64,000 bases of DNA from Eledone cirrhosa (taxonomy: Eukaryota). This document shows positions 1 to 64,000 of this stretch, in pieces. The position numbers and the translations under genes were made by a program. Each line of letters begins with the position of its first letter. The stretch's first letter is position 1. The DNA lies in contig OZ024740.1 in NCBI GenBank assembly GCA_964016885.1, forward strand, positions 319,982,001 to 320,046,000, read 5' to 3'. The notes under the pieces are model-generated. The model ran no database searches. It saw only the letters and a program-made list of their open reading frames with translations, and had not been told where the DNA came from.

Positions 1-728
1 CATCAACACCACCACCCCAACATCAATATTACCACCACCACCGCCACCACCATCACCACCATTACTATCATCAACGCCACCGCCACCACCACCACCACAA
101 CCAAAACCACCACCACCCCCAAATCAATACCACCACCACTACCGCCACCACCATCACCACCACCACAACCACCACCACCACCACCACCATCCACCACCCA
201 CCATCACCATCAATACTACCACAAACAGTTCCATCACCATCACCACATCCATAAAAACACCACCTGTTACTTACCGTCAACATCACTAATAGCACACTGT
301 GTCCACCTCCACCACCACCACTAATAGTACCCCGTCACCACCTGCACCACGACCACTAATAGCACCCCGTCACCACTTCCACCACCACCACTAATAGCAC
401 CCCGTCACCACCTCTACCACCACTACTAGCACCACCACCGCCACTGATAGCACCCCGTCACCACCTCCGTCACCACCACTAGCACCACCACCGCCACTAA
501 TAGCACCCCGCCACCACCTCCGTCACCACCACTAGCACCACCATCACCACTATTAGCACCCCGTCACCACCTCCACCACCACCACTAGCACCACCACCAC
601 CACTACTAGCACCCCGTCACCACCTCCACCACCAACACTAGCACCACCACCACCACTAATGGCACCCCGTACCCCATTACGACCATCCCACCGTCATCAC
701 CATCAGTAACCCCACCACCAACACCATC
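1..728. repeat. CAC/ACC-rich low-complexity tract containing a 35/56-bp minisatellite (about 283-680)
   Basis: Degenerate (CAC)n. Anchor CTAATAG(C/T)ACCCCGTCACCAC recurs at 321, 356 and 391 (35-bp period), then alternates with TAGCACCACCACCGCCAC inserts. Confidence 0.9.
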
Positions 729-754
729 AGAAACGAGAGAGCAATAAATCTGAT

Positions 755-917
755 CATTCGACCTGCTAGAAATAGCGATCAAATCCCACTCGAATATCGC
801 GCTGTCGTATTTACAAAAAGACAAGGTAAAGAATGCCAGAAAAAGATAATATGGTCATGGCTAGTCATAAAATGATCGTAGGTTTACTGGTCACAAATAA
901 CCTAGGGCTAAACAACA
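755..917 (+). mobile_element. Remnant of an interspersed octopus SINE-like retroposon (body and 3' end), continuous with the first satellite monomer
   Basis: TTCGACCTGCTAGAAATAGC..CAAATC.C.CTC.AA..ATGGTCATGGCT..TGATCGTAGGT..ACCTAGGGCTAAACAACA follows, from memory, the motif order of a common Octopus repeat ending in GACCTGGGGCTAAACAACAAC. Not verified by search. Confidence 0.6.
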
Positions 918-3900
918 CTATTGATGGTCATGGCTGGTCTTAAAATGATCGTGATCGTAGGTTTACTGGTCACAAGTAAACTAGGGCTAAACAACACTAT
1001 TGATGGTCATGGCTGGTCTTAAAGTGATCGTGATCGTAGGTTTACTGGTCACAAGTAAACTAGGGCTAAACAACACTGTTGATGGTCATGGCTGGTCTTA
1101 AAATGATCGTGATCGTAGGTTTACTGGTCACAAATAACCTAGGGCTAAAGAACACTATTGGTGGTCATGGCTGGTCTTAAAATGATCGTGATCGTAGGTT
1201 TACTGGTCACAAGTAACCTAGGGCGAAACAACACTATTGATGGTCATGGCTGGTCTTAAAATGATCGTGATCGTAGGTTTACTGGTCACAAGTAACCTAG
1301 GTCTAAACAACACTATTGATTATCATGACTGGTCTTAAAATGATCGTGATCGTAGGTTTTACCGGGCACAAGTAGCCTAGGGCTAAACAACACTAATGAT
1401 GGTCATGGCTGGTCTTAAAATGATCGTGATCGTAGGTTTACTGGTCACAAGTAACCTAGGGCTAAACATCACTATTGGTGGTCATGGCTGGTCTTAAAAT
1501 GATCGTGATCGTAGGTTTACTGGTCACAAGTAAACTAGGGCTAAACAACACTATTGATGGTCATGGCTGGTCTTAAAATGATCGTGATCGTAGGTTTACT
1601 GGTCACAAATAACCTAGGGCTAAAGAACACTATTGATGGTCATGGCTGGTCTTAAAATGATCGTGATCGTAGGTTTAAAGTGTCACCAATAACCTAGGGC
1701 TAAACAAAACTATTGATGGTCATGGCTGGTCTTAAAATAATCGTGATCGTAGGTTTAAAGGGTCACCACTAACCTAGGGCTAAACAACACTATTGATGGT
1801 CATGGCTGGTCTTAAAATGATCGTGATCGTAGGTTTAAAGGGTCACCACTAACCTAGGGCTAAACAACACTATTGATGGTCATGGCTGGTCTTAAAATGA
1901 TCGTGATCGTAGGTTTAAAGAGTCACCAATAACCTAGGGCTAAACAAAACTATTGATGGTCATGGCTGGTCTTAAAATGATCGTGATCGTAGGTTTACTG
2001 GTCACAAATAACCTAGGGCTAAACAACACTATTGATGGTCATGGTTGGTCTTAAAATAATCGTGATCGTAGGTTTAAAGGGTCACCACTAACCTAGGGCT
2101 AAACAACACTATTGATCGTCATGGCTGGTCTTAAAATGATCGTGATCGTAGGTTTGAAGGGTCACCACTAACCCCGAGCTAAACAACACTATTGATGGTC
2201 ATGGCTGGTCTTAAAATGATCGTGATGGTAGCTTTACTGGTCACAAGAAACCTAGGGCTAAACAACACTAATGATGGTCATGGCTGGTCTTAAAATGATC
2301 GTGATCGTAGATTTACTGGTCACAAATAACCTAGGGCTAAACAACACTATTGATAGTCATCGCTGGTCTTAAAATGATCGTGATCGTAGGTTTACTGGTC
2401 ACAAGTAACCTAGGTCTAAACAACACTATTGATTATCATGACTGGTCTTAAAATGATCGTGATCGTAGGTTTTACCGGGCACAAGTAGCCTAGGGCTAAA
2501 CAACACTAATGATGCTCATGGCTGGTCTTAAAATGATCGTATGTTTTCTGGTCACAAGTAACCTAGGGCTAAATAACACTATTGATGGTCATGACTGTTC
2601 TTAAAATGATCGTGATCGTAGGTTTACTGGTCACAAATAACCTAGGGCTAAACAACACTATTGATGGTCATGGCTGGTCTTAAAATGATCGTGATCGTAG
2701 GTTTACTGGTCACAAATAACCTAGGGCTAAAGAACACTATTGATGGTCATGGCTGGTCTTAAAATGATCGTGATCGTAGGTTTGAAGGGTCACCACTAAC
2801 CTAGGGCTAAACAACACTATTGATGGTCATGGCTGGTCTTAAAATGATCGTGATGGTAGGTTTACTGGTCAAAAGAAACCTAGGGCTAAACAACAGTAAT
2901 GATGGTCAAGGCTGGTCTTAAAATGATCGTGATCGTAGATTTACTGGTCACAAATAACCTAGGGCTAAACAACACAATTGATAGTCATCGCTGGTCTTAA
3001 AATGATCGTGATCGTAGGTTTACTAGTCAAAAGTAACCTAGGGCTAAACAACACTATTGATGGTCAGCGCTGGTCTTAAAATGATCGTGATCGTAGGTTT
3101 ACTGGTCACAAGTAACCTAGGGCTAAACAACACTATTGATGGTCATGGCTGGTCATAAAATGATCGTGTGTTTACTGGTCACAAGTAACCTAGGGCTAAA
3201 TAACACTATTGATGGTCATGGCTGGTCTTAAAATGATCGTGATGGTAGGTTTACTGGTCACAAGTAACCTAGGGCTAAACAACACTATTGATGTTCATGG
3301 CTGGTCTTAAAATGATCGTGATCGTAGGTTTACTGGCCACAAGTAACCTAGGGCTAAATAACACTAATTATCGTCATGGCTGGTCTTAAAATGTTCGTGA
3401 TCATAGGTTTACTGGTCACAAATAACCTAGGGCTAAATAACACAATCGATGGTCATGGCTGGTCTTAAAATGATCGTGATCGTAGGTTTACTGGTCACAA
3501 ATAACCTAGGGCTAAGCAACACTATTGATGGTCATAACTGGTCTTAAAATGATCGTGATCGTAGGTTTACTGGTCACAAATAACCTAGGGCTAAAGAACA
3601 CTAGTGATGGTCATGGCTGGTCTTAAAATGATCGTGATCGTAGGTTTGAAGGATCACCACTAACCTAGGGCTAAACAACACTATTGATGGTCATGGCTGG
3701 TCTTAAAATGATCGTGATGGTAGGTTTACTGGTCACAAGAAACCTAGGGCTAAACAACAGTAATGATGGTCAAGGCTGGTCTTAAAATGATCGTGATCGT
3801 AGATTTACTGGTCACAAATAACCTAGGGCTAAACAACACTATTGATAGTCATCGCTTGTCTTAAAATGATCGTGATCGTAGGTTTACTAGTCACAAGTAA

Positions 3901-45900: not shown

Positions 45901-46130
45901 GCCTAAATAACACTATTGATGGTAGGCTGATCTTAAAAGGATCGTGATCTTAGGTTTACTGGTCACAAGTAACCTAGGGCTAAACAATACTATTGATGGT
46001 CATGGCTGGTCTTAAAAGGATCGTGATCGTAGGTTTACTGGTCACAAGTAACCTAGGGCTAAACAACACTATTGATGGTGATGGCTGGTCTTAAAATGAT
46101 CGTGATCGTAGATTTACTGGTCACAACTAC
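851..46130 (+). repeat. 79-bp tandem satellite array, about 45.3 kb, about 570 monomers, with higher-order repeats
   Basis: Consensus CTATTGATGGTCATGGCTGGTCTTAAAATGATCGTGATCGTAGGTTTACTGGTCACAAGTAACCTAGGGCTAAACAACA. Variants: 80 bp (TTTAAAGGGTCAC; period 80 at 1741/1821/1901), 73 bp (single GATCGT), 77 bp (GGTAGCCTAGTC). All head-to-tail in one orientation; I saw no insertion. Confidence 0.98.
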
Positions 46131-47841
46131 CTCCGCTGCCACAGTCATCATCCCCACGACAACCATCACCACTACCACCACAACCACCGCAACCATCACC
46201 ACTACCACCATAAACATCACAATTATCACCATCACCGCCACAACCAGCACCAACACCGCTTCCACCAACACTATCATCATTAACTCCGCCGCCACCTCCA
46301 CCACCACAGCCATTACAACCACCACTACCACCACAAACATAACCATCGCCACCCCCAACGCCGCCACCACAATCACTACCTCCACAACTATCACCCTCCC
46401 CACCAACATCACCACCATCACCACAACCATCACAATCATCACCATCACCGCCACCGCCAATACCACCACCACTACCACCACCACAAACATTATCACCATC
46501 ACTGCCGCCGCCACCACAACCATCCCCACCACCACCACTACCGCCACCACCACCACCACCGCCACCACCACACTTCACCATCACCAGCATTACCGCCGCC
46601 ACCGCCGCCACCAGCACAAACCAACACAGCAGCCACCGCCGCTACCACCACAACTAGCACCACCACCACAACCATCAGCATCAACAGCACCACTGCCACC
46701 ACCATCACCATCACCACCATCAACATAACCACCACCATCAATATCATCACCAGCAGAACAGCCACACCAGCCAACACCTGCACCAGCACCACCACCACCA
46801 ACACCATCATCACAAACCATCACAGCCGCCACTGCCAGCACCAGCACCAGCACCATCACCACCACCACAGCCGCCACCATTACAATCATCACAAACCACC
46901 ACAGCCGCCACCATCGCCACCACCACCATCACCATCATCACAAACCATCACAGCCGCTACTGCCAGCACCAGCACCACCACCAGCACCACCACTACAGCC
47001 GCCACAGTCGCCACAACCATCACAATCATCACAAACCACCACCACCACCACCACCACCACCACCACCACCACCACCATCATCACATACCACCACAGCCGC
47101 CACCACCAGCAACACCACCACAGCCGCCACCATCGCCACCACCACCATCACCATCACCATCATCACAAACCACCACAGCCGCCACCACCAGCACCATCAC
47201 CACAGCCGCCACCATCGCCACCACCACCACCACTATCACCATCATCACAAACCACCACAGCCGCCACCACCATCACCACCACCATCATCATCACCATCAT
47301 CACAAACCACCACAGCCGCCACCACCAGCACCACCACCACAGCCGCCACCATCACCACCACCATCACCACCACCATCACCACCACCATCACCACCACCAT
47401 CACCATCACCATCATCACAAACAAACCACAGCCGCCACCACCAGTACCACCACCACAGCCGCCACCACCAGCACCACCACCACAGCCGCCACCATCGCCA
47501 CCACCACCATCACCATCACCATCATCACAAACCACCACAGCCGCCACCACCAGCACCACCACCACAGCCGCCACCATCGCCACCACCACATCACCATCAC
47601 CATCATCACAAACCACCACAGCCGCCACCACCAGCACCATCACCACAGCCGCCTCCACTAGCACCATCACCACAGCCGCCTCCACCAGCACCACCACCAC
47701 AGCCGCCACCATCGCCACCATTACCATCACCATCACCATCATCACAAACCACCACAGCCGCCTACACCACCACCACCACAGCCGCCACCATCACCACCAC
47801 CATCACCATCACCATCATCACAAACCACCACAGCCGCCACC

Positions 47842-47874
<33 letters not shown>

Positions 47875-48045
47875 ACCATCACCATCATCACAAACCACCA
47901 CCAGCACCACCACCACCACCACCACCATCACCATCACCATCACCATCATCACAAACCACCACAGCCGCCACCACCAGCACCACCACCGCAGCCGCCGCCA
48001 CCACCACCACCAGCACCACCACCGCCAGCGCCGCCGCCGCCACCA
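46131..48045. repeat. CAC-rich low-complexity tract with degenerate minisatellite (anchor CATCATCACAAACCACCACAGCCGCCACCA, about 46805-47990)
   Basis: Trinucleotide-derived sequence with the same strand bias as the tract at 1-728. The anchor recurs many times at variable spacing. Confidence 0.9.
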
Positions 48046-49380: not shown

Positions 49381-49614
49381 TTCTTTATTAGCCACAAGGG
49401 CGCAACAAGAAAAGGGGACAATACAAAGACATGCCGGGGATTTTACATACAGTCGTGTAAAAAATATAAAAACAAACAATTTCAACAATCGAAAACCCCA
49501 ATAGGGAGTAGGCGCCACAAATGGGTTGTTTAATACCCCGTCGATAGAACAACACTCAACTCCAGGGGCGTGTTATGCAAGTGCTCCTTTCTTCCTTTTG
49601 CTCTCTTCCTCAAC

Positions 49615-52600
49615 CTACAGGCTTATAAACAGAGAAGGCCCAATCACTCGGGCCATTTTCGCTTCATTCACCCACCTTTCAGTAAATTTACTGGGGTGCA
49701 ATGCCTCTCTCTCCACCCTGATTCTCCTTCTAAAGTGATACTTAAAGAAGGGAATCAATTGTTGTCCGGAGAGAAAGGCATCTGTCCTCAGTCCTCTCAA
49801 CCTCGTCCACCATATAACTTCTTTCACCATAGCCACCGTACAGAGGAAAACCGCCTCTCTTTCGTTTATGAAAGAGTCTGGCGGTTTGATCCTTACTATG
49901 GACTCGGCAGTCAACTGGATTTGTCCCATACGCGACAGCAGTTGTTCTGCATAGTTCCACAGGCCGCTTACGCCCGGGCAGTGTACAATTGCGTGCAGAA
50001 CTGTTTCAATGTCCTGCGCACATCTTGGACACGTCCTCTTCGAAGGATCCCTGCCAGGGCGTCCGTGCCTGTAGATCTTGTCACGAACTGGTAGAGCTCC
50101 TCGGTAGCACTGTCAGGCCAGGGACCTCTGGAAGTTGTCCATAGGTCCCGAACGGAAAGTCCTACCAAACAGACTAGTGAGCTCATCGTCTTCGACGCCC
50201 AGAGTCTCTCCGAGCACGTCGTCGCCCTTGTAACGTACAATCCCTCTATAGAATGTCGAAGTGGAGTCTCCACTGATTGCTGCGCCCGCTTGCAAGAGGA
50301 CTGTGAGCGCCTGGGCGCATTCAATGTGCCAGGCGCCCATCGTTTTCGGTCTTTTCTTCACCCAGGACTGCAGCTCCGTTAGCGAGACGAGCTGTGGGAA
50401 AGCCTGTCTCACAAACGGTGCCCACACCGGTTGGGGGTCGGTGAGGAATACCTGGAGATACCGCAGCCTCAGCGCATGTTTGCGCATCATCAGCCACGGC
50501 ATTCCCAGCCCTCCGTTGGAAGGGTGTTGACAGCAGACGGATCTCCTCACCAGCGGAGCCTGCTTCTTCCACAGAAACTGGAAGAGCATGCGTTCCATCT
50601 TGGCGAGGCGTTCACGGGGACAAGGCACGACAGTCAAGCGGTAGTAGATGACGGACGCTATGAAAGTGTTCGCCACCTCCGCTCGACCTTTCAAGGACAG
50701 TTTGCACTCTGCCCACTTCTGAGTGAGTGCAAAAACCTTGGCCGTGACCTCGTTCCAGTTTTTCTCCACCTGGAGGTCTGGACCGAACCAGACCCCGAGC
50801 AATTTCACCGGTCCGTCCGTCCAGCGTCCAACGACGCTGTCGGATGTCATCGGTTTGCCTCTCCACGTACCGAGCTGCAAACCGACAGACTTGTCTGGGT
50901 TTAGTTTTGCTCCCGTCAGCGTTTCGTATTCTTTCAGTAAGTTGCCGATCACCCCGATTTCCGAGGTGCTCGACACCATTACCGTTACGTCGTCGGCATA
51001 AGCCGACGCCGCTTTGCGCAGTCCCGGTTCTAGGGGGATGCCCTGCAACAGCTCCAATTTCCGCAGTAGTGGCTCCAGAGTCAATACATACAGAATGGAG
51101 GAGAGGGGGCATCCCTGTCGAATGGAACGCGTTATTGCGAACGGCTCCGATAGGTAGCCGTTCACCTTGACCCTCGAGCAGATGCTGGTGTGCATCGCCT
51201 CGATCCATCCTCTGAACACGGGACCGAAACTGGCCGCCTTGAGAACCGCTTCCAAGTATCGATGGTCGACCCTATCGAATGCCTTAGACTGATCCAAGTT
51301 GATCAGAGCCCCACCGAAGCCGCGTTTACTACCCACCCTCTCTATGATGTATCGCATGAGGTGGAGGTTGTCGTGTATGGACCTGGTCGGGATTGCACAC
51401 GTTTGCGCTTTCCCTACCAGGTTCTCGACGACAAGCGCCAACCTCGTCGCTAGCACCTTGGCCAAAATCTTTAACTCTGTGTTGAGCAGAGTTATGGGCC
51501 TGAAGTTGTTAATTTCGTCCCCCTTGTTCTCGTCTTTCCTGATCAGCCTTACTACGCCCTTGCCTGCAGAACTGGGAATTCTCCCGTTCTGCTGCCAATT
51601 GCAGTAGACGGCATGCCTATGTAATATTCGTAGGGTAGACCATCTAGACCGGGTGACTTGCGTTTCCCGCAGCGGCCCAGAGTGTCCCGTATCTCAGTGT
51701 CCGTGATCGGTCTTTCGCAGAACTCGGCGTCCGTGTTCGAGAGACGCGGCAGGCCGTCGAGGTATGAACTAAAGTCCATTGCCCCGTTCGGCTCACCGTC
51801 GTTCTGCTCAAACAGTCGCGCAAAGTGCCGCTGAAAGGCCGCGCACATTTGCTTGGGGTCAAGTAGCACGCGTCCGTTTTGGTCTTTCAAAGACCGAATC
51901 GTGGACTTGTTGCCACTTTTTGCCTCCGCCACTCGGGCCCAGCTGACAGCTTTCGCTCCTTCGTTTCCTAGAGCACGTGTTTTGCTTCTGACCACGCAGC
52001 CTTCGTGTTTCGCATCGAAGAACTGGTCCAGTGCCGTTCTCGACGCTAACACTCTAGCCGCGTTGCCACTTCTAAGTGCCTCCTCTACCTTGGCTACTAG
52101 TTCTCTTTCTATTCTGTTTTTCTCTAAGGCTAACTCTCTGCTATACCCTATCGATTCTATTCTAATTGCTTTCTTGAGAGTGTACTACCATCTATTGTTG
52201 ACGATGGCTCCCGTTAACTGTTGCTTGACTAGTCTACTTATCTGTTCACTGTAAGCTTTACGTGCCGGCAACGACACGTTCAGCTTCCAGTATCCGGGAC
52301 CCTATCTATGTATTCTATCACGGTTGACTAAGCAGACGACTAACTTGTGATCTGAATAAGCAACCATGTGCATTCGTGGACAGCTTAACATCTCTTTGTC
52401 CCTTTCTCTAATGAAGAACCTATCTAAATACGATCTAGATGTCCCACTGCGGTTTACCCACGTCCACTGTGGTGCAGTCGGGAAATCCAGTCGATACCTA
52501 TCGGCCAGTTGGAATTGGCCGATTAAAGTTTTGAGGCTGTTGCACCCCGCTCTACTGGGACATGCTCCCACATAGTCCCATCGTGCATCTAGGATACCAT

Positions 52601-53033
52601 TCCAGTCCCCCACTAAAAGTAAGGAGCGAGACGTTCCCAGAAAAGACTCTAGACGCTTAATGAAGTCTGGCCGTGATTGCGATTGCCCGGTCGGGGCATA
52701 AACGGCCACCAGTCTGAAGGCTCCACCTCCGATACTGTTCACGTCTAGGACTACCAGTCTACCCTCCGGGTCCAAGTGTACTTGCTGTACTCCGACGTCC
52801 AGGTTCTTCCGAAACATAACAGCCACTCCACCTCCACCTCCTGGCTGACAGAGAGATGCGTAGATCTCAAAGTCGTCGAAGATGGGGGTTAGTTGCTGCC
52901 TGTTGTGGATCCTGGACTCGGTGATGGCTATCACATCCATACTGTGTGACCTAAGGTCGTTTAAAAGTTGGCCCTGTTTCCAGGGCATCCCTAGGCCACG
53001 CACATTCACGGTTCCAACTCGTAAACCAGCCAT
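49615..53033 (-). pseudogene. LINE ORF2 (AP endonuclease, reverse transcriptase, zinc-binding C-terminus), disrupted
   Basis: APE 52302-53033 (TVNVRGL, ITES, YAP, GDWN, YLDRFF, SDHKLV). In-frame TAG at 52302-52304 and 52185-52187. Frameshifting lesion near 51605-51615. RT 50113-51600 with YADD at 50989-51000. In-frame TGA at 50113-50115, then CPRC..ETVLHAIVHC in the same frame to the stop at 49615. Confidence 0.93.
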
Positions 53034-53074
53034 GTTGGTGAAGAAAAGTTGGAGAAAAAGGACGAAAGGTGCAC

Positions 53075-54954
53075 TTACCTTTTCGTTTCCTGGAGATTGG
53101 GTTGTTCAATCTCCATTTGGGTGCTGGATGGGGTGTTGGGTGGGGTGGGGAAACCTTTCAACAGGACGCGGTTGATGGGTTTGTGGCAGGGGTTGCCCAC
53201 GTCCTGTGAAAATTTAATTTTTAGGTCTTTATAGGTTTCCATAGAAACCCTTATAAGTTTAAGGTGTGGAGACGATTCTGCCTTGACGAAAGTTTTGCCC
53301 TCCGTCTCCACCTTGGGGTTTTGGGAGATGACCTCCATCAAACTCTTGTTGTTTGTGTTGATGTATGCGTATTGTTGTTTGTGTTTTTGTTGTGTTGTTT
53401 TAGTTTGTTGTTCATCCGGGAGTTTTCTTTTTATGGTGGGTGCTTGTGTTTGGGGTGGTGTTGGTGCTGGTTTTGCTGATAGGGGTATGTTTGACTGTGG
53501 TGTTGTTTGTGTTGTTGTTTGTGTCTGTGGTTGTGTGTGGGTGTTGGTGATTGGAGTTTTGGGGGTTTTGTGGTGTCTCATTTTTTTGTTTTTTAGATTT
53601 CCGCGGTTCTCCCTCTTCTTCACTTAAAGAAGGAGAAGCAGCTTCATCCGTCGATGAATAATCATCGTCAGGTGTGTGGGGTAAGGGTATGTTGTGTGGT
53701 GGTGGTGGTGTTTCGGTATGTGTGTTTGTGGTAGTGTTTGATGGAGTGGGATGGATCGGGGATGTGTTCTTCGGGGGTGTTGTCTCTGTTTTTTCTGTTG
53801 TTGTTGGTTGAGTGTCTGTTTGTTTTGGTGTGGTTGCTCGTTTCGTCTGTCGTTGTACTTGTGGTGGTGGTGGTGGTTGTTTTGGTGTTGGTGTTGGTAA
53901 TAGCGTTTTTTTATGATGTTGTTGTTGTGTGTTTGTGGACAAGAGGCTTTTAGGTGAGCTGTGCTACCACAGCGAAAGCAATGAAATTTTCGTCCTTCCA
54001 CCGAAATGTTTATTTTGTTGTTATTATCAATAACGACCCTTTCGGGTATTTTGGAGATTCTCTCCGGTTTCATTTGCAACAGAATCTCCAAATCTGTGCC
54101 CGCCCACCTTTGTCGAATAGATTTTCGTATCGAAAGTATTATGTCTGTTTCTGGCTCTACGAAGCCAGCCAAGATCCACCAGATGTTAATGCTTGGAGGT
54201 ATGTTTTTTATTTTTATTTTTTGTGTCCTTTTCCCCATGTATGTAGGGAAAAAGGTGTATGCTTTTGACACTATTGGTGTCACAGAGTTTTTTGGGCGAG
54301 TGCCTCGCTTTTAAACAGTACGGAAACACTTCCGTACTGTTTTCCTCGCTGGAGAAAATCGACATTTGCTAGAATTTCCTTGAAAGAATCTTCTATATCT
54401 GCTTGATTAACAAATGTCGGTTTTCTTGACGAATTTGACACAGTCCTAAAAGTGACTGATCGGCGGTTTGTGTCTTCCTTTATTTCAAGGGGTGAGTTAA
54501 TTCTAAACCCACCTCTTTCTTCGAAAGTTACAAATTTTCTCCCTTGCTGGAGCATATCTCTTGCGTCGGAGATATCAAGATTTATAAAATCTTGTTTCTT
54601 GTTGACTGTGTCAGCGAAAGACATTTTCTTTTTTTGTGTGGTGTTGTTGTTGATGATGATATTATCGTTGTTGGAAACTTTATGTGTAGATGTATCTGTA
54701 GAGTTGTTGATATCTTTTTCATGTGTATGTATGTCAATGGGTTTTTTTGCTGTGTTTTCCTGTGTGTTATTGTTATTTTTCTCCGCTTCGGCGGTAGAAA
54801 TTGTAAAATTTTCAAATGTTAATATATTTTTTTCTTTTGTGACAGTTGTATCTATGGCGACGTCCATAGTAGCAGAAGCAGATATAACGTTAATATCTGC
54901 CTCTTTCTCTCTCTTTTCTCTATTAACGTTCTCCAGCGTTCTAGTGTTGCTCAA
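53075..54954 (-). pseudogene. LINE ORF1 (nucleic-acid-binding protein with CX2CX4HX4C knuckle and long Thr/Pro/Gln-rich tail), split by three frameshifts
   Basis: Overlapping pieces 54280-54954, 53624-54283, 53412-53942 and 53075-53623. Knuckle CFRCGSTAHLKASC at 53939-53980 is preceded by ISVEGRK. It sits directly upstream of ORF2 on the same strand. Confidence 0.82.
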
Positions 54955-55171
54955 GTTTTTTACTTTGTAAAATCTTATATTTTAAAACAAATTTTTAAAA
55001 TAGAATTTTCGCCCCTACAGGGGCAAAAAATGGGATTACCACCCACCTGACAATTCAGCTTGGGGGTTAATCTACAAAGTGTTGTGTTTTTTTTAAACAA
55101 TTAGATCGGTTTTTTGCATAGAAATTAACAAAAAACTTGCCGGCGATGTTCCACACGTCAGACAGAAAGAG

Positions 55172-56199: not shown

Positions 56200-56381
56200 T
56201 TGTTTCTACTTTAGGCACAAGGCCAGCAATTACCCAGTTGATTACTGGTACTTTATTTTATCGACCCCGTAAGGATGAAAGGCAAAGTCAACCTCGGCGG
56301 GATTTGAACTCAGATCGTAAAGGGACGTAACTATGCTGGAAAGCATGGCATCCGACCCTCTACCGATACTGCCAATCCACC
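56199..56381 (-). mobile_element. tRNA-derived SINE, nearly complete
   Basis: Minus strand: A box TGGCAGTATCGG, B box GAGTTCAAATCC, central GCCTTTCATCCTTACGGGGTCGATAAAATAAAGTACCAG (Meta-SINE-like domain, from memory), and 3' end GCTGGCCTTGTGCCTAAAGTAGAAAC. Confidence 0.8.
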
Positions 56382-56433
56382 AATAACACGCATATATATA
56401 TATTATTATTATATAAAGTACCAGTATTATTAT

Positions 56434-57894: not shown

Positions 57895-58911
57895 ACACTC
57901 ACTGTTTTCAAAAATATGATAAACAACATAAACAATAACATACAATGCACAATGGAATCCAACTCCAAGGAATTAGCCTTCTTGGATATCCTTATTTTAA
58001 AAATAAGATGGGAAAATAGAAACAGACATCCTTTATAAACCCACGGACTCCAAACTCTACTTCCACTGCACATCAAGTCACCCAAAACATACAAAACTTA
58101 ACATTCCTTTTAACTTAGCCAAACGTATATGCACCATAGTATCAGATCCAACTAAACGAGAACAAAGACTAAATGAACTAAAAACACACTTACCTTAAGA
58201 GCCTTCCCACTTGACATAATTAATAACGGAATAGATAGAACAAAACACGTAAATTTTCATCCACTTAACGATCCAAAGCACAGAACCACAAACAACACCT
58301 TACCAAATGTATCCACCTTCAACCCCAGAAACACCGAAATATTCGACCAGCTACACAAAAACCTCCCCATTCTATTTAAAGATGAAAAGATGAAAAAAAT
58401 CCTAGAAACACACAAGATCATTAAAAGGAAAAGGCAACCCAAATCACTAAACCACATTCTTACGGCAACAAATATACACAAACCAATCTACAGCCTTACG
58501 GTAACAAAATGTGGAAGAACAAATTGTGGCACATGCCTATACTTAATTGAAGGACAAAATTTCGCGTTTAAAGATGACCAAACTTTTACAGGGAAAAACA
58601 ACTTCACTTGTAACTCAGAGAATCTGATCTATGTAATAACATGCGGTGGCTGTCGACATAACTATATAGGACAGGCGAGTGTGTCATTATGCAAAAGAAT
58701 GACCATCCATCGCCAACAAATCCGAGACGTAAACACAAGAAAAATCCCCTTAAGTACCCACATTACAGATTGTGGAGGAATGACCCTACCCAACTTTCAA
58801 ATCTCCCCCCCCCCCCCCCTTTATAAGTGCTCAGATTCTTTCACCCAACAACAAAATATAAATATAGAAAAACCATTTATTAACAAATTTAAACCAAAAT
58901 TAAATATGTAA
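57895..58911 (+). pseudogene. Penelope-like element remnant: RT C-terminus/thumb and GIY-YIG endonuclease, 5'-truncated and frameshifted
   Basis: NINNNIQCTME..ELAFLDILI; ETDILYKPTDS; SHPK..NIPFNLAKRICTIVSD; then ORF 58390-58911 with CGRTNCGTC, TCNSENLIYVITCGGCRHNYIGQ, KRMTIHRQQIR and the terminal FINKFKPKLN. Confidence 0.88.
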
Positions 58912-59747: not shown

Positions 59748-60076
59748 GTGACTACCTCTCTCTATATACAGTAAGGTTCCATATTCTCAAGAAGAAAGCT
59801 GAACAGACCTTCAACACTTAATTTTAAATTTTTTATTTTTACGTAATTCTTTTTAATTATTTTTAATTGTAATTTTAACATTTCATAAGATGGATTACAT
59901 CGAAACCAGTTATATTTTATATATTTTATATACATTATAAAATTCTTTTTTTTTTTTTAAATTGTTCCTCTCATTTTTTCAATAATGTCACTTTGACGGA
60001 TCAAAGAAGAAAAACAGATCCTTTAAATATTTGTCCGTGCTATTTCCAATTCAACTTCCTCTCTCTCTATGTATAA

Positions 60077-60784
60077 GGTATATGGTCTTTAAAGCGATGA
60101 AATACCGATGATGGTCGGAAGATCACTGATGAAGGACTAACTTTATTCATATGTAACCCATTTGCAACCACGCAGCACGTTTATTCTCATAATTACACAT
60201 ATATTTCCCCCTGCTGTGACTCGTCTATTTCGTTCTTACTGCTTCCTCTTTCTCTGTATCTTTACCCTCTCTAACAGTCACTCTCTCTGTTAGCCTCTTC
60301 CTCACCCTTCACTCACTCACTCTCTGTTACTACCTCTCCTCCTCCTCCTTCTTCCCGTTTGACCTGTGCGTAATTCTTTTCTTTCGCACCATTGGTCAGG
60401 CAGGTTCGCTTTTTTTTCTCTCTCTCGTCTACGATTTCACAGAACTTATGTTCACCGAATTCATGGACTGGACTCCTTCTTCCTCCCGTTTGACCTGTGC
60501 GGAATTCTTTCCTTGCTCACATTTCAACCAGGTTTGATGGTCTTTATTCTCTCTCGTTCACGATTTCACCGAACTTATATTCATGGAAATTTGGGACTTG
60601 ACTCGTTCTTCCTCACTTTTCGTTGCTTTACCATCTTTGTTTGTTTACACTCTCGCTGTTCCCTTTATTTACGTGTCCCAACGACTTTCTTTAGCCGTTT
60701 CTCGCACCAACCGGAGGTATATGGTCTTTAAAGCGATGAAATACCGATGATGGTTGGAAGATCACTGATGAAGGACTAACTTTA

Positions 60785-63325: not shown

Positions 63326-63483
63326 TCCCCCTTTATTTACGTGTCCCCAACGACTTTTTTTAGCCGTTGTTCGCACCAACCTGAGGCATATGGCCCTTAA
63401 AGCGATGAAATGCCTGGGACGGTTGGAGGGTCACTGATGAAGGACTTACTTTTTCATATGCACCACCATTTGCAACGCGCAGC
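63326..63483. repeat. Third, more diverged copy of the 60-kb dispersed repeat
   Basis: CCCTTTATTTACGTGTCCC.AACGACTTT..AAAGCGATGAAAT..CACTGATGAAGGACT..CATAT aligns to 60660-60791. Its continuation CCATTTGCAAC..GCAGC aligns to about 60158-60176. Confidence 0.8.
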
Positions 63484-63826: not shown

Positions 63827-64000
63827 GGTAGGTCTAGAGTTCGCTACTCGCTTGATGGTTGCGTCAATCGATCTTTAATACTTTGTTTATAACCAGTCGT
63901 GCTAAAGTCATGCTCTGATGAAACGACTGGTTATAAACAAAGTATTGGAGATCGATTCGATTAACGCAACATCAAGCGAGTAGCGAACTCTAGACCTACC
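63827..64000. repeat. Long inverted repeat (arms of at least 74 bp, 22-nt spacer), truncated by the window end
   Basis: 63827-63900 is the reverse complement of 63923-64000 apart from a few substitutions and small indels. Pairing continues to the last base of the window. Confidence 0.93.

Follow-up and report, generated by a model that had tools for sequence, protein, structure and literature searches.

The tandem array and its surroundings

The window, meaning the whole 64,000-nucleotide stretch of Eledone cirrhosa DNA analysed here, contains one long satellite array. Tandem Repeats Finder returned it as a single array at 873–46126 (period 79, 574.3 copies, 91% matches), and parsing on a conserved 3′ motif resolved 574 whole monomers from 850 to 46073 plus one cut monomer, in agreement with the initial annotation, which had put the satellite at about 570 copies and 45 kb. 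To its left lies a short unique segment, hereafter the head. The features are:

1–732, plus strand: left flank, a degenerate (ACC)n tract with 35- and 53-bp minisatellite layers (Tandem Repeats Finder rows 31–656, 284–640 and 379–670)
733–849, plus strand: unique head, a dispersed-repeat remnant that putatively represents the upstream portion of the parent; its left limit is approximate
749–796, plus strand: multi-copy dispersed part of the head (52 reads, three runs, many starts, mixed loose ends)
763–778, plus strand: short hairpin with a GAAA loop at 769–772, four Watson-Crick pairs in the window
850–922, plus strand: monomer 1, 73 bp with a single GATCGT; the left boundary could be 847
900–917, plus strand: 3′ end of monomer 1, apparently matching, judging from tallies, an 18-letter piece of a head-bearing molecule
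923–46073, plus strand: monomers 2–574, about 90% pairwise identity, with recent block duplications
46074–46127, plus strand: last monomer, truncated to 54 bp; it lacks the original 3′ junction
46128–48045, plus strand: right flank, a degenerate (ACC)n tract oriented like the left flank (Tandem Repeats Finder row 46292–48045)
50113–51693, minus strand: reverse transcriptase of a non-LTR element (PF00078 match from 50116), with a weak zf-RVT match
52305–53105, minus strand: endonuclease of the same element (PF03372)

The whole monomers comprise 279 distinct sequences, most of them 79 bp long (393 monomers, against 110 of 80 bp, 36 of 77, 25 of 73 and 10 of 78), and their 3′ ends are a short AAC-type run. 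Mean pairwise identity is 90%, and the average monomer differs from the array consensus at 3.8 of 79 positions. Homogeneity varies along the array: an identical twin is present for 20% of monomers 1–41, 93–98% of monomers 206–369 and 56–66% of those at the right end. The left edge, where the initial annotation had placed the birth site, is thus the least homogenised part. Block copies are visible at several scales (67 monomers at lag 99 with 5 differences, 24 at lag 98 with none, 40 at lag 43 and 32 at lag 45), showing that growth proceeded through the copying of 43 to 100 monomers at a time, with the latest rounds in the centre. It also holds exact repeats of 2402 and 2013 bp, which may reflect very recent duplication or slight over-assembly.

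The trimer profiles of the two flanks correlate at 0.94, in one orientation. At the right end, the cut array keeps matching a monomer variant that occurs 57 times for a few bases into the flank (46127–46133), which suggests that the cut end was joined at a short shared sequence.

Several other elements lie further right. A near-complete, broken non-LTR retrotransposon, which we take to be Tx1-like, occupies 49480–55130 on the minus strand; the best named match of its reverse transcriptase is from Argonauta hians (66% identical over the whole query), which makes an octopod the likely host, and open frames upstream within the element may be its ORF1. The stretch at 56205–56385 (minus strand) presumably resembles a common octopus tRNA-type SINE and is unrelated to the array head. 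At 57900–58911 (plus strand) a decayed 244-aa open frame has no Pfam match but resembles, on visual inspection, a Penelope-type element at its end portion. Three dispersed copies of a 107-bp repeat (60038–60144, 60677–60783 and 63346–63452; 69–86% to the reference) are accompanied by a two-copy 129-bp tandem at 60342–60614. A palindrome at 63827–64000 reaches the window edge, with outer arms at 63827–63857 and 63970–64000 (31 nt, 100%) and inner arms at 63866–63900 and 63923–63957 (35 nt, 94%), and is possibly a MITE or fold-back element.

The head and its dispersed relatives

The segment at 735–850 has no second copy within the window, and the composition of the head differs from that of the flanks. 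It adjoins monomer 1 without a spacer. The unbroken passage from unique segment to monomer 1 claimed earlier therefore stands, with the start of the segment moved from 755 to near 733. The head is not a decayed monomer: its alignment score of 39 compares with a mean of 43.7 for 1000 shuffles (p 0.85). Nor did we retain a 51-codon open frame over the head as a gene, since it has no Pfam family, no homologue in a search that took in longer proteins only, and only weak Atlas matches.

To look for copies elsewhere, we aligned three RAD-seq runs of the same species label, none indexed as holding this stretch, to 701–922 at 80% likeness. The runs yielded 23, 23 and 10 aligned reads from 12.5, 12.8 and 12.6 million (37.9 million in total). 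Fifty-two of the 56 cover 765–780 and lie on 749–796, and the depth of these head reads is zero at 701–748 and 797–868 in all three runs. Most (46 of 56) are less than 90% alike to the window and none is at least 99% alike, and none of the reads aligned to 701–922 in the three runs comes from the locus itself. At place 777 the reads over the head have 12, 12 and 5 starts in the three runs, and all aligned reads continue into unlike sequence, with a loose-end agreement of 0.54–0.78; one loose-end consensus (4 reads) is similar to 732–739. Exact 17-letter matches are expected by chance 0.65 times in this much sequence. Fifty-two reads with many starts and unlike continuations place 749–796 in a dispersed family, as had been proposed for the unique segment. 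Dispersed multi-copy status, one of the attributes of a SINE, is established for these 48 positions of the head only.

The reads also report the family's letters. In the best-kept part, the head differs from them at about 6–7 of 37 places. Most reads carry A at 777 (44 of 52), T at 786 (23 of 39) and C at 788 (25 of 38), while G at 778 (22 of 52) and C at 779 (24 of 52) occur in under half; the three loose-end consensuses behind 795 all start with C. The initial annotation had put forward a common Octopus retroposon colinear with the unique segment plus the monomer, which differs from the window at seven places in 760–796. The read letters agree with this proposed element at six of these (777, 778, 779, 786, 788 and 796), the seventh (792) not being listed in the reads, which makes the proposed element credible. 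T at 762 and T at 777 are listed in the reads and absent from it. Background knowledge of an Octopus repeat agrees with the proposed element as well, which does not amount to a test.

With the dispersed-read letters at 777 and 778, the hairpin at 763–778 gains Watson-Crick pairs, reaching six; that it is a recognition stem-loop is a guess. The same hairpin word turned up in a Mycoplasmataceae MAG contig, JAITWZ010000011.1 (570–1010), where three intergenic units of about 60 bp downstream of a tRNA gene each carry a TATAAT-like site and then the GAAA-loop word of the head. These units may be a repeated small RNA gene, and we take the shared word to be a coincidence.

From the head to the monomer

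Whether the family runs on into the monomer is the weak point of the case. All 23 reads of one run (X1) cover 765–780, and their tallies show one further piece at 900–917, from which it appears that one X1 molecule carries the head and the 3′ end of the monomer without the middle found in the window. This piece is 18 letters long, its order and strand relative to the head are not given, and at this cut-off it could be a chance match; it ends at 917, the element end that had been predicted beforehand. No dispersed read of the three runs covers 797–899 at 80% likeness, which leaves two options for the monomer: a divergence of more than 20% from the family, or no relationship with it. Joints are tabulated from three reads upward, and none is listed. 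Because the proposed element was right at six of seven head places, the rest of it, running into the monomer, gains credibility. The claimed colinearity of monomer and dispersed element draws weak support from the X1 molecule ending at 917 and none from reads over 797–899. Taken together, these data suggest weakly that the family continues into the monomer, and the monomer is likely to derive from the 3′ end of a dispersed repeat, on the strength of one molecule and a proposed element that passed a partial test.

A fragment of a dispersed repeat might instead abut an unrelated satellite by chance, the monomer then not being derived from it. The halt of dispersed reads near 796, with none over 797–899, is what such a neighbourhood predicts, and the colinearity of head and monomer comes mostly from the element proposed beforehand. 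Chance neighbours are also common where repeats are: the parts of PMC13282606 covered here give 11.6% SINE and 12.9% LINE for the O. vulgaris genome, together about a quarter. Against a chance encounter stand the head and monomer end on one molecule, the success of the proposed element at six of seven head places and the lack of any spacer between head and monomer 1, and we consider it improbable.

Four reads of another run (X2) fall on 869–922, carry the array consensus letter at 897 and extend past the end of this segment, so the satellite exists in an independent sample. They bear on the possibility that misassembly produced the array or its junction. The exact 2402- and 2013-bp repeats would speak for this, as would the junction, spanned by no read of the three RAD-seq runs. 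An artefact would be hard to reconcile with these monomer reads and with 279 distinct monomers in graded variant layers, and we give it almost no credence. The array is real, on this evidence, and its copy number may be somewhat off.

Broader searches returned no full copy of the parent element from the collections or literature covered. A 17-mer of the head occurs at 13 loci in genome contigs and 40 in metagenome contigs of prokaryote and viral collections, none of which goes on to resemble head or monomer. With a second head pattern there was no viral locus and there were three bacterial chance loci, a two-motif monomer pattern had no match in three prokaryote and viral collections, and a plasmid collection held no match to head or monomer patterns. 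Octopod contigs were not found via the LINE protein or the 56205–56385 repeat motif. Exact head and monomer words gave only two unrelated primer matches in full texts and none in the supplements searched (4 of 8 files of PMC9115989, 1 of 2 of PMC4824008), and the element was not found in the portions available of PMC9115989, PMC4758252, PMC4824008, PMC5786205 and PMC11481361.

Monomer 1 and the growth of the array

Monomer 1 differs from the array consensus by four substitutions and a 6-bp gap, having one GATCGT where the consensus has two. Its nearest other monomer is four differences away, a distance reached or exceeded by only 3 of the 574 monomers. The left boundary of the repeat unit may be 847 or 850; judged by their letters, both fit the junction with the head. 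The single unit is as had been reported and is not special to monomer 1: the 73-bp single-unit form also occurs in 24 of the 573 other monomers, 8 of them among monomers 2–70, so the chance of finding it in monomer 1 is 4% overall and 12% near the left edge (8 of 69). An argument from the single GATCGT is weak for this reason. The internal 73-bp monomers fall into several groups that have alleles in common with long monomers and are mostly closer to those than to monomer 1, indicating repeated loss of one unit; the single-unit state is, by the look of these alleles, easily regained within the array. Monomers of 73 bp are more frequent towards the left (p 0.011, with identical monomers collapsed and monomer 1 left out), and the 77-bp type first occurs at monomer 237. 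The earlier proposal that the 6-bp duplication arose after seeding finds little footing here, since 24 internal monomers lack the duplication too and the parental state comes from the proposed element.

Our preferred explanation is that the array, which adjoins a dispersed-repeat remnant, was created on the spot when the terminal ~73 bp of that element were tandemly duplicated, the element itself being likely a 5′-truncated retroposon (a SINE or the end of a LINE); we regard this as probable. A retroposon copy would have inserted into an (ACC)n tract and then decayed. Long after insertion, slippage or misaligned repair would have produced head-to-tail copies of its 3′ end, and the upstream part would have stayed single at the left edge. 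A 6-bp slippage duplication may then have spread to most monomers and been lost again several times, as the array expanded, presumably by unequal exchange, in multi-kilobase blocks, and a later deletion probably took the original right end. We propose no function beyond that of passive, heterochromatin-type DNA. The late timing is suggested by the divergence of the head from its family (46 of 56 reads less than 90% alike) set against the closeness of monomer 1 to the consensus (4 of 73 positions); if the array has converted monomer 1, seeding could be older than it looks.

The same contrast bears on an earlier start, in which the first tandem copies were made at insertion, when the reverse transcriptase jumped back on the 3′ end of the RNA, and expanded later. 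Target-primed reverse transcription starts at the 3′ end of an element, and the repeat unit corresponds to the predicted 3′ end. Copies made at insertion should match the divergence of the head, being equally old, unless conversion erased that divergence; monomer 1 is only four substitutions from the consensus and the head has moved much further from its family. We therefore hold this version to be very unlikely.

The monomer might also come from a retroposon 3′ end in an array born elsewhere, this locus then being a daughter, produced by copying or recombination, that kept its leading unit. SINE-derived satellites of squamates occupy up to thousands of loci and commonly have a longer terminal unit, as far as the covered portions of PMC10702118 describe them. 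A daughter array would likewise account for the cut right end and for the distance to monomer 1, which has no gradient along the array (rho −0.015, p 0.73). It fits less well with matching flanks on both sides, with the scarcity of satellite reads (4, with 2 starts, among 37.9 million) and with the lack of any head read of at least 99% likeness; because RAD libraries sample unevenly, the low read count is a weak hint of few loci. On balance a daughter array is unlikely, and seeding in place remains the reading we prefer.

Nature of the parent and known retroposon-derived satellites

The parent had been called a SINE, and some attributes of the copy agree: it is short, about 185 bp, and non-coding. 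The AAC-type run closing the monomers and the one dispersed piece ending at 917 could mark a simple-repeat 3′ tail. Other attributes of a SINE are missing at this copy. There is no tRNA gene in or before the head, no Rfam match in 600–1200, and no A box or full B box for Pol III in 600–925, while the sequence upstream of 733 is of (ACC)n type. Without a tRNA head or Pol III boxes, and with (ACC)n upstream, the copy is at best a 5′-truncated retroposon, for which the SINE assignment is tentative; a truncated LINE 3′ end may fit the parent too. Neither head nor monomer matches the LINE in the window. No target-site duplication is visible; the flanks share only ACC-type words of up to 10 bp, and the right junction is cut.

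In squamates, a survey of 56 genomes described SINE-derived satellites sSat1–3 (Vassetzky et al. 2023; PMC10702118). In the parts of that paper covered, units measure 70–290 bp, arrays reach about 1,200 units at about 90% similarity with locus-specific subvariants, and in most loci the terminal unit is longer and follows the SINE up to its end; its authors left open whether such satellites are confined to squamates. The array described here is similarly long and homogeneous, its 574 monomers far exceeding the four middle monomers at least that mark such a satellite, and has a longer terminal unit, a unique head with dispersed homologues on monomer 1. Unlike sSat1–3, it belongs to another phylum, is known from one locus where such satellites have several, often subtelomeric, has as its unit the presumed 3′ terminal part of an element whose family is unnamed, and retains a head that has no tRNA region. 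The array works like a SINE-derived satellite, and its membership depends on the parent consensus. A seeded satellite with its parent attached is accordingly less unusual than the initial annotation held, the pattern being common in squamates as far as PMC10702118 was covered.

A molluscan parallel is PcH-sat of the limpet Patella caerulea, a 179-bp pericentromeric satellite that accounts for about 10% of the genome and whose monomer holds a SINE 3′ part (118 bp like Nin-SINE) without A and B boxes, according to the sections of PMC11121367 covered. Both are mollusc satellites with a SINE-type 3′ part as presumed source of the monomer. They differ in that the 45-kb array has its head in place, while an attached parent copy of PcH-sat is not described in those sections.

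Candidate parents are the octopus retroposon families. Octopus tRNA-derived retroposons were reportedly described by Ohshima and Okada in 1994. Two of them, OR1 and OR2, are named in the covered parts of PMC4824008 and PMC4758252 and belong to the likely host group, the comparison being by name alone. Among cephalopod SINEs with LINE-derived parts, the Ceph-SINEs of squid and cuttlefish, marked by a Ceph domain (CORE plus RTE 5′ part), are treated in the portion of PMC5786205 covered, and three exact words from head and monomer (exact words, no alignment) gave no match in its Ceph-SINE supplement. The O. vulgaris genome has 80 satellite families, and their origins are not described in the parts of PMC13282606 covered. 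In the literature searched, a scope that leaves most subscription journals and Repbase aside, we found no cephalopod SINE-derived satellite.

The principle of a satellite built from a retroposon tail is not new, being known in reptiles and a limpet. The starting point of a satellite is usually deduced from a loose likeness between monomer and transposon. With the presumed parent still adjoining the array, comparing this one locus between species allows tests of the initial duplication, of when it happened with respect to insertion and of the growth that followed. We tentatively suggest, giving it somewhat less than an even chance, that the window preserves the intact birthplace of a single-locus cephalopod satellite. 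The tail of a copy that had lain dead for millions of years would have been duplicated where it stood and expanded to 45 kb, and one could read, in order, the seed, the old layers on the left and the newest block duplications. If so, related octopods would keep an unexpanded copy between the same (ACC)n flanks, and the birth of the satellite could be dated directly. Such a locus would add cephalopods to squamates as carriers of SINE-type satellites that keep their head.
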